NCBI RefSeq assembly: GCF_013167455.1
Contig: NZ_CP038328.1
Origin: Escherichia coli O157:H7
GTDB lineage: Bacteria > Pseudomonadota > Gammaproteobacteria > Enterobacterales > Enterobacteriaceae
Direction: 5' to 3' (one strand)
DNA: 64,000 bases
In this document: positions 3,001 to 6,000 of the stretch, piece after piece
Numbering within the stretch: the stretch's first letter is position 1
Layout: each line of letters opens with the position of its first letter
Made by a program: the position numbers

Positions 3001-6000
3001 AGCGCCCATGTCATTGACGAAACGCTGCGCCAGCGTACCAGTTCACTATTTCGCGGGATTATCCCTAAACCGGTGCCGCGTGAAGTGCTCGGTCAGTTAC
3101 TGGCGCACTATCTCCAACTGCAAGCCAATAACGATCTACCACTGGATGTATCGCAACTCAATGAAGACGCTCAGTTAATGGGGACGGAGAAGATCCACGA
3201 ATGGCTGGCATTATTTACACAACATGCCCTGCCGCTTCTCGATGAAATCGACATTGCCCGCGCCACTCAGGATAGCGAGAAAATAAAGCGTGCCGCGCAT
3301 CAGCTAAAAAGCAGTTGCTCGAGTCTGGGAATGCGTAGCGCCAGCCAGCTCTGCGCACAACTGGAGCAGCAGCCATTATCTGCCCCCCTTCCACACGAAG
3401 AAATTACACGCAGTGTTGCCGCTCTGGAAGCATGGTTGAATAAGAAAGACCTGAACGCGATTTGAATCAATATCAGCCAGTTAAGAATAACTAGAATAGT
3501 GGCATCTGGTATGCAACTTAACGGACTGGCAAAATCATGGCAGAGAAAAAAAGAACCCGCTGGCAGCGGCGGCCAGGCACGACGGGCGGCAAATTACCGT
3601 GGAATGACTGGCACAATGCCACGACCTGGCGTAAAGCGACGCAATTATTGCTGTTGGCAATGAATATTTATATTGCCATCACGTTCTGGTATTGGGTGCG
3701 CTATTACGAAACGGCAGGTAGTACGATATTTGTCGCCAGACCGGGAGGTATCGAAGGCTGGCTACCGATTGCCGGTCTGATGAATCTGAAATATAGCCTT
3801 GCAACAGGTCAGTTACCGTCCGTCCACGCCGCCGCGATGCTGTTATTGGTCGCTTTTATCGTCATCAGTCTATTACTCAAAAAGGCCTTTTGCTCATGGT
3901 TATGCCCGGTTGGTACGCTTTCTGAATTAATCGGCGCTCTCGGTAACAAACTGTTTGGTCGGCAATGTGTCCTTCCCCGCTGGCTGGATATTCCTCTGCG
4001 CGGTGTAAAGTATTTGCTGTTGAGTTTTTTTCTCTATATCGCGTTATTGATGCCTGCTCAGGCGATTCACTATTTTATGTTGTCGCCCTACAGCGTGGTG
4101 ATGGACGTTAAAATGCTCGATTTCTTTCGTCATATGGGGACCGCGACATTAATCAGCGTGACCGTTTTGCTGATTGCCAGCCTGTTTATTCGCCATGCCT
4201 GGTGTCGTTATCTTTGCCCATATGCGCGCTGATGGGCGTGGTTTCGCTATTATCGCCGTTTAAGATTCGTCGCAATGCCGAAAGTTGTATCGATTGTGGC
4301 AAATGCGCAAAAAATTGCCCATCACGGATCCCGGTCGATAAATTAATTCAGGTACGAACAGTGGAATGTACCGGCTGTATGACTTGCGTAGAGTCATGTC
4401 CGGTAGCCTCAACATTGACCTTTTCACTGCAAAAACCTGCGGCAAATAAAAAAGCCTTTGCGTTGTCTGGCTGGTTAATGACGCTACTGGTTCTGGGGAT
4501 TATGTTTACGGTGATTGGTTACGCAATGTATGCAGGAGTATGGCAAAGCCCGGTGCCGGAGGAATTGTACCGACGCTTAATTCCGCAAGCGCCAATGATT
4601 GGTCACTAAATTAGCAACAAGCGGAACATCACCTCGCACGGGGTGATGTTCACAAAATCACATTATTTTGATTTTGACATCATAACTTTCAAGCCCGGTC
4701 ATTTTTTCTCGCGCGGTGAAGCGAATTTCAGAGACTTCTTTCCCTGTATTCTTGTTCAGCTCGGCGATTTTTTGCGCGATAAAGTCGGCGATTTCCGTTT
4801 CGGCTTGTTTTTTAACTCTTCAATATTCACTGTTAACCTCTTCTGGTCTTAAAAGACAGCAACACGCCAGTAAGGTGTTGGTTCCCGGTACCCTGGTCAG
4901 GTAAGAAATGTTATAAGCCATCTCCCCGAAAGATTCAATAATCAACAGGTTATCGCTTACTATACATACAGCGTTGAAAAAAAATAAGACAGATATAAAA
5001 AAGGCTCCACAAGGGAGCCTGATATTATTTTGTGAAATCCAGCGGTGCATGGTCAGTGCGTATTTGCAGCGCGACGTTATCAAAGGTGATCATCGTCGAT
5101 TTACAAAAAATACACTTAGCGCCCAAAGGGTTTCGCTCCGTCACATCGAATGCCGATGTGCGGTACTGTGAACCATGACAACATGGACAGCGAAAATGGA
5201 GATGTTGAGTAATAACGGCAACCTTAGAGCGTAACTACGTTCGCTGCCGCGGGGCCACGTTGACCCTGCTCAATAGAAAATTCAACTTTCTGATTTTCGT
5301 TCAGCGTGCGGAATTCATTGCTCTGGATGGCGGTGAAATGGACGAAAACGTCTTTGCTGCCATCATCAGGAGTGATAAAGCCAAAACCTTTATCTGCGTT
5401 AAACCATTTTACTAAACCAGTCATTTTATTAGACATATTTTACTTCCTTCATTTTGGGCCTTTCGGCAAACAGGGCTTTAATACAGAAACTACTTAGTGT
5501 TCAGGAGAGAGACTCAAAAGAAGGGGATAATGCCTGATAATGAGAACTGCTTTAGTAAACTACTTTGTATGCTGTCTGTCTTTCCAACCGACGCAGCTAT
5601 TAACGCATGATAATTGAGATTAAGCAAATTTTATTTTAGCCGTCCGGCGGTCTTAAATATCGCTGGCTTTATTTTATTAACCCCGTATAGTGCAGCGCAG
5701 TATTTTCAGTAAGGAATTTGTTTGTCCCGTAAAATGACAGGAATTGTCAAAACCTTTGATCGCAAAAGCGGCAAAGGATTCATTATCCCCTCCGACGGTC
5801 GTAAAGAAGTTCAGGTCCATATTTCCGCATTCACTCCCCGCGACGCAGAAGTGCTTATACCAGGATTACGCGTGGAATTTTGCCGCGTAAATGGCCTGCG
5901 AGGACCAACAGCGGCAAATGTTTATCTCTCTTAATATGACGCTGCTTGTTTAAAGCTGACTGGTTTTATTGGCATAGTTCAATAGTCAACACCATGTATT

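Follow-up and report, generated by a model that had tools for sequence, protein, structure and literature searches.

In a stretch of Escherichia coli O157:H7 DNA of 64,000 nucleotides (hereafter the window), the reading frame of yccM ends after 231 codons and the remainder of the coding sequence lies stranded in a different frame. The question raised by this locus is whether the break is an error in the sequence, a protein made in two pieces, a site of programmed recoding or a genuine loss of the gene, and, in the last case, how far the loss extends among related strains. The data presented below indicate that the window very probably carries a real, recent and clone-restricted loss-of-function allele of yccM.

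The break in the yccM reading frame

At 4215-4232 the window reads tgcccatatgcgcgctga, that is TGC CCA TAT GCG CGC TGA, which is translated as C-P-Y-A-R-stop, the TGA occupying 4230-4232. An earlier note on this DNA had flagged the span 4220-4232, within which the bases atatgcgcgctga are found, and the C-P-Y-A-R-stop that it described there is borne out by both the sequence and its translation. Indeed, the product of the truncated frame consists of 231 residues, the last of which are HAWCRYLCPYAR (WCRYLCPYAR) directly before the stop. The protein had also been said to continue as ALMGVV... in the "+1 frame"; the continuation in the next frame is present, while the wording of the frame was loose, the actual offset of the downstream frame relative to the upstream one being +2/-1. 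The ancestral codons at this point are TAT GGC GCG CTG ATG GGC (Y G A L M G), as opposed to TAT GCG CGC TGA in the window, and in an alignment with EDL933 and strain 17B6-2 the sole difference within yccM is one absent G of TATGGCGCG. When one G is added after position 4224, the resulting 1074 nt are nucleotide-identical to the yccM of EDL933 (357 aa, WP_000818441.1), in agreement with the claim that a G inserted after tatg would restore a protein of about 357 residues. Thus, a single indel explains the break, and the full protein is regained once that indel is undone, as expected of a frameshift pseudogene. The comparison with yccM orthologues that had been proposed as a check, performed on complete genomes and on the EDL933/17B6-2 alignment, likewise backs a single absent G, and the earlier reading of a one-base frameshift is supported at the level of sequence.

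The coordinates of the features considered are collected in Table 1. The stranded 3' part of yccM is identical in its nucleotides to the intact allele and has undergone no further decay. A 135-aa open reading frame that starts at GTG 4202 in the downstream frame has no exact-sequence match in the protein collection, and a 125-aa product from ATG 4232 is predicted by gene callers on sequencing-run assemblies.

Table 1. Features of the yccM locus and Rfam elements located elsewhere in the window.
Feature	Position	Strand	Remarks
NsrR-binding site, yccM promoter	3497-3519	+	TAGTGGCATCTGGTATGCAACTT; intact, one mismatch relative to the CFT073 yccM NsrR motif
Truncated yccM frame	3537-4232	+	231 aa, then premature TGA; membrane domain and both C-x3-C-P motifs
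First C-x3-C-P-x-G motif	3891-3914	+	C119-G126, FCSWLCPVG; intact
Second C-x3-C-P-x-G motif	4203-4229	+	Broken: WCRYLCPYGA becomes WCRYLCPYAR, then stop
1-bp deletion site	4224-4225	+	The ancestral GG of TATGGCGCG reduced to a single G
Stranded 3' part of yccM	4226-4609	+	Ancestral frame, A231-H357 plus stop (ALMGVVSLLSPFKIRRNAESCIDCGKCAKNCPS...IGH, stop at 4609)
TGATG	4230-4234	+	The native Met233 codon (4232-4234) has one base in common with the premature stop (4230-4232); possible restart
[4Fe-4S] cluster motif C251-P262	4286-4321	+	In the stranded 3' part; Pfam dicluster ferredoxin match
[4Fe-4S] cluster motif C278-P289	4367-4402	+	In the stranded 3' part; Pfam dicluster ferredoxin match
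C-terminal membrane helix, residues 312-333	4469-4534	+	Predicted in the AlphaFold model
cspA-type thermoregulator	5170-5592		Overlaps and lies upstream of cspG; Rfam, above threshold
ALIL frameshift pseudoknot	52814-52930		In an annotated frameshifted transposase gene (insertion sequence); Rfam, the only frameshift element found
sRNA STnc100	55460-55650		Rfam, above threshold
sok antitoxin	60701-60875		Adjoins hokD; Rfam, above threshold

Genomic setting

In the window yccM lies between torS and gnsA/ymcE/cspG/cspH, which are followed by gfcABCDE, etp, etk, appA, cbd/app and hya, and then by a tRNA-Ser and a lambdoid prophage. The neighbour downstream of yccM is on the opposite strand. Upstream, a scan for the NsrR motif returned one match in the window, with 0 expected by chance, which is the site in the yccM promoter. 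The best genome matches of the window are all E. coli O157:H7. Relative to the resequenced EDL933 chromosome, the 64 kb are collinear from end to end, with three indel events and 193 substitutions, nearly all of them within the prophage. The nearest complete genome is that of strain 17B6-2, from Ohio cattle, with 31 differences in 64 kb: the absent G of yccM, a SNP at 19717, a patch of 28 SNPs at 33828-34656 and one C in a poly-C run, the latter being the only other indel besides that in yccM. Since only these 31 differences separate it from 17B6-2, the assembly of the window can be called clean. Both EDL933 and 17B6-2 annotate a full-length yccM of 357 aa. The idea that the window could be the original 2001 EDL933 sequence carrying a Sanger error was ruled out by the 193 substitutions and by the closer relationship to 17B6-2.

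Other positions in the window also vary or are annotated as broken. Just 3' of yccM, gnsA (about 4658-4830, minus strand) is an annotated frameshifted pseudogene in EDL933 and 17B6-2, to which the window is identical over this gene, so that the gnsA break, unlike that of yccM, is common to these O157:H7 genomes. Within the prophage, the terminase large-subunit gene (minus strand) contains a run of 11 C at 45072-45082 and its frame is broken in the window, while the run counts 10 C in 17B6-2, where the gene is annotated as frameshifted, and 9 C in EDL933, where it is intact; the 11-C run is either a variable homopolymer or a miscall of homopolymer length. The 28 substitutions at 33828-34656 fall in genes of the prophage tail (C40 peptidase / minor tail protein L) and look like a recombination patch between lambdoid prophages. 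At 36082 the prophage tape-measure gene has one more G than in EDL933, where it is annotated as frameshifted, and the window matches 17B6-2, where it is intact. The tccP2 region, at about 25108-26141, contains repeats at 141-base offsets (self-matches within 25362-26120); tccP2 is annotated as frameshifted in both EDL933 and 17B6-2, and the short-read draft of E. coli 3.4880 appears to collapse its repeats. Four tRNA matches were also found in the window by Rfam.

Conservation and domain content

The relevance of the lost base can be appreciated from the conservation of the residues around it. A search for homologues was run on 1.84 billion representative proteins and the full-length matches were aligned: G230 is kept in 75 of the 78 sequences (77 homologues and YccM), and the second motif, W-C-R-Y-L-C-P-Y-G-A, is almost fixed. 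In a cleaner alignment of 48 sequences, made of YccM and 47 homologues at 28-47% identity, C223, R224, C227, P228 and G230 are invariant, together with the cysteines at 251, 254, 257, 261, 278, 281 and 284, and A231 is conserved in at least 90%. As to the first motif, the homologue alignment has C119, C123 and G126 as invariant and P124 as conserved in at least 90%. The claim that the break falls inside a conserved CxxxCPxG motif is therefore well founded, given the invariant Cys, Pro and Gly of the 48-sequence alignment.

The two sides of the break differ in domain content. According to Pfam, intact YccM comprises two Fer4_5 (PF12801) stretches and a two-cluster ferredoxin region. Fer4_5 is matched well above its cut-off of 22 by both the intact (78.1 bits) and the truncated protein (72.5 bits), with two stretches each, and the two C-x3-C-P motifs, FCSWLCPVG and WCRYLCPYG, are present in the intact protein, which places it in PF12801, the membrane domain of NapH/MauN/NosR/CcoG type. 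The 231-aa piece retains Fer4_5 only and the 125-aa remainder the ferredoxin motifs only. Consistently with this partition, an AlphaFold model of intact YccM, built on the homologue alignment (mean pLDDT 92.1, pTM 0.89), places the break in the helix P228-S237 that is predicted to lead from the membrane domain into a ferredoxin domain at 242-298, followed by a transmembrane helix at 312-333 and by a short terminal helix. The truncated protein is thus devoid of both [4Fe-4S] motifs, with all eight cluster cysteines, and, as modelled, of the last membrane helix.

Could the two pieces still work, or the loss be selected for?

Two scenarios would depart from a simple loss of the gene by drift: either a restart at TGATG yields a partly active, two-piece YccM, or the loss of the NsrR-controlled YccM has been selected in a cattle- or human-associated O157:H7 subclone. 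A slight chance may be granted to the pair. The first scenario, in the broader form of a functional split in which the membrane part (231 aa) and a ferredoxin part of 125 aa made from the restart together form a working, or partly working, YccM, is very unlikely. The premature stop and the Met233 codon share one base, an arrangement known to allow termination-reinitiation, and a weak restart that makes the C-terminal 125 aa is conceivable; nevertheless, no Shine-Dalgarno-like sequence was seen before ATG 4232 upon inspection of the upstream sequence. The C-terminal piece does retain a complete dicluster domain with a membrane anchor, but the cut falls inside a helix, modelled with confidence, that links the two domains, and at the junction itself two residues have been exchanged, the invariant Gly230 and the conserved Ala231, and a third, Leu232, is missing. 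Finally, the absence of further decay in the 3' part, which a split would account for, is equally expected of a very recent mutation.

Structural precedents do not help in judging a split protein, as none was matched: at E <= 0.001, a Foldseek search matched the YccM model to no entry of the PDB, and a search of the YccM sequence against solved structures returned generic ferredoxin domains only. In the same Foldseek search, no experimental structure was matched for the membrane domain of the NapH/CcoG-like group.

Distribution of the deletion

Whether the missing base is present in the DNA of the strain can be approached from its occurrence in other sequences. A probe of 70 bases centred on the site was compared with complete RefSeq E. 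coli genomes, and none of the 5,403 genomes with a probe match reaches at least 99% identity; among the matches listed, the 70-base probe spans 71 bases, owing to the extra G. The exact 231-aa protein is on record in GenBank as ELW37537.1, where it derives from the draft genome of E. coli 3.4880, a strain of serogroup O157. It is found on seven contigs, namely this NCBI draft and six Logan assemblies of separate SRA runs, SRR24147942 and SRR575718 among them, some of which may represent one isolate re-sequenced. The flanks that were fetched from these contigs, of up to 14.6 kb in length, occur letter for letter in the window. The intact O157 allele of YccM, for its part, is found on at least 1000 contigs.

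A second variant accompanies the deletion. At 19717 the window has T for G, which changes Pro21 of HyaE to Thr (P21T) and is its only other backbone SNP relative to 17B6-2. HyaE P21T is also present in E. coli 3.4880, and a total of 11 contigs carry it.

Against this background, it is hardly probable at all that the G was lost only in sequencing or assembly and that the yccM of the strain is actually intact. An error would fit with the lack of the deletion in complete RefSeq genomes and with the GCGCGC stretch that adjoins the site, since base-calling compression in such stretches is a known weakness of older Sanger data. Yet an independent NCBI draft has the identical truncation, as do six runs that were assembled separately, and the window is almost without other indels relative to its nearest relative. 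A systematic artefact of the site is contradicted by the intact allele on at least 1000 contigs, and the restriction of the deletion to a few runs that share a rare linked SNP, HyaE P21T, which 3.4880 carries as well, also argues against a site-specific artefact. The recurrence of the same truncated protein, together with the HyaE link, indicates that the deletion is real in the DNA. The earlier note had held that the finding of the same split in close relatives would speak against a frameshift. The split is indeed found in 3.4880 and in the six runs; all of them come from one and the same small clone, so that what their split refutes is a sequencing error, and the frameshift is left untouched. 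From the sequences available, the deletion is best regarded as real, inherited, recent and confined to a small O157:H7 clone.

A different picture is offered by the public E. coli assembly GCA_019431005.1 (L010, JABTXQ010000001.1), in which nearly every gene of the tor-yccM-gfc region is in fragments, as is typical of uncorrected long-read indel errors and in contrast to the window. The 125-aa "YccM C-terminal" product of this assembly derives from another break, the GG at the window's deletion site being intact there.

A programmed frameshift, in which slippage of the ribosome or of the RNA polymerase restores full-length YccM, has a probability next to nil: the two frames do overlap, and slippage by -1 immediately ahead of the stop would give back the protein, but 4180-4232 contains neither an X-XXY-YYZ slippery heptamer nor a homopolymer run, the Rfam scan found no element and the promoter/terminator scan no relevant feature at the break, and the gene is unbroken in 5,403 genomes, so that neither a slippery sequence nor a conserved two-frame arrangement, the hallmarks of programmed ribosomal frameshifting, is found and no conserved recoding site exists.

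Proposed origin and consequences of the allele

With the preferred reading of a recent loss-of-function frameshift, the sequence of events is as follows. The spontaneous loss of one G from the GG of TAT-GGC-GCG (Y229-G230-A231) shifts the frame, and the shifted frame is read as Ala-Arg and then meets an out-of-frame TGA, giving rise to a membrane fragment of 231 aa. In this fragment the transmembrane helices are still present, as are the cysteines of the two C-x3-C-P motifs. Missing from it are the invariant Gly230, the greater part of the linker helix, the two-cluster ferredoxin domain in its entirety and the last transmembrane helix. Electron transfer through the truncated YccM would then no longer take place and the gene would be inactivated. 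Domain content, as derived from the sequence and the structural model, thus points to a loss of YccM function.

The unchanged promoter and NsrR site, along with the unchanged 3' part of yccM, fit a very young mutation, and no polar effect is expected as the neighbouring gene is on the other strand. Because yccM is non-essential, its loss is most likely a case of drift, neutral or mildly deleterious, within a small clone of O157:H7. The allele is, in other words, an ordinary strain-level pseudogene.

Some practical implications follow. In annotation, yccM of the window should be recorded as a frameshifted pseudogene rather than as two small genes or one short gene; ELW37537.1, labelled "electron transport protein" in GenBank, is a truncated yccM product. 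The deletion combined with HyaE P21T provides a handy marker for the small O157:H7 clone. As K-12 knock-outs are sensitive to heat and blue light and yccM belongs to the nitric-oxide (NsrR) regulon, the clone may be viewed as a natural mutant, and its comparison with intact siblings could be used to study the function of YccM. What is known of the protein family is left unchanged by the deletion.

Comparison with known systems

NsrR has been shown to bind the yccM promoter in CFT073 and K-12 (PMC5320621), and in EDL933 yccM figures in a list of ciprofloxacin-induced genes (PMC11125564). Knock-outs of yccM in K-12 are viable and sensitive at critical high temperature (PMC5828445), as well as to blue light and several stressors (PMC11673782).

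The closest term of comparison is intact E. coli YccM (EDL933 WP_000818441.1, annotated as "4Fe-4S binding protein", 357 aa), which is encoded by the same nucleotides bar one G, at the same locus and behind the same NsrR-bound promoter motif. In contrast to it, the window allele stops after 231 aa, without the ferredoxin domain and the last membrane helix. Other frameshift alleles of yccM have arisen independently in E. coli (P0010, P0012, P0006 and P0013). Those of P0010 and P0012 reach the same out-of-frame TGA and also encode 231 aa, but in all four the mutation sites and the strain backgrounds differ from those of the window, whose allele is the one also carried by E. coli 3.4880. The occurrence of these independent alleles suggests that yccM is dispensable in E. 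coli.

Among families, NapH/MauN (NF007013, TIGR02163) has the same layout as YccM: the membrane domain (Fer4_5) carries two C-x3-C-P motifs, and a pair of [4Fe-4S] motifs comes after it. The NapH model matches YccM residues 25-299. The broken motif had been attributed to the NapH/MauN family: the motif and Pfam Fer4_5 are indeed shared, whereas membership does not hold, the scores lying far below the NCBIfam cut-offs (92.9 bits against 234 for NapH NF007013 and 90 bits against 213.05 for NapH/MauN TIGR02163). Moreover, YccM differs from NapH in its predicted additional C-terminal membrane helix and in its location outside any nap operon. Membership of CcoG/RdxA/FixG (TIGR02745) does not hold either, as YccM scores 34.3 bits against a cut-off of 316.7. 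By sequence, YccM is best described as a paralogous relative of NapH, and as a relative and not a member of the NapH, NapH/MauN and CcoG families.

In Rhodobacter capsulatus, CcoG is reported to act as a cupric reductase (Marckmann et al. 2019, as cited in PMC7558416), and the review that cites this work names YccM as a shorter CcoG homologue in a species without cbb3 oxidase (PMC7558416). Like YccM, CcoG/RdxA/FixG combines two [4Fe-4S] clusters with a Fer4_5 membrane domain; unlike CcoG, YccM is without the C-terminal Ig-like periplasmic domain (PMC7558416) and is predicted by its model to end with a membrane helix and a short helix.
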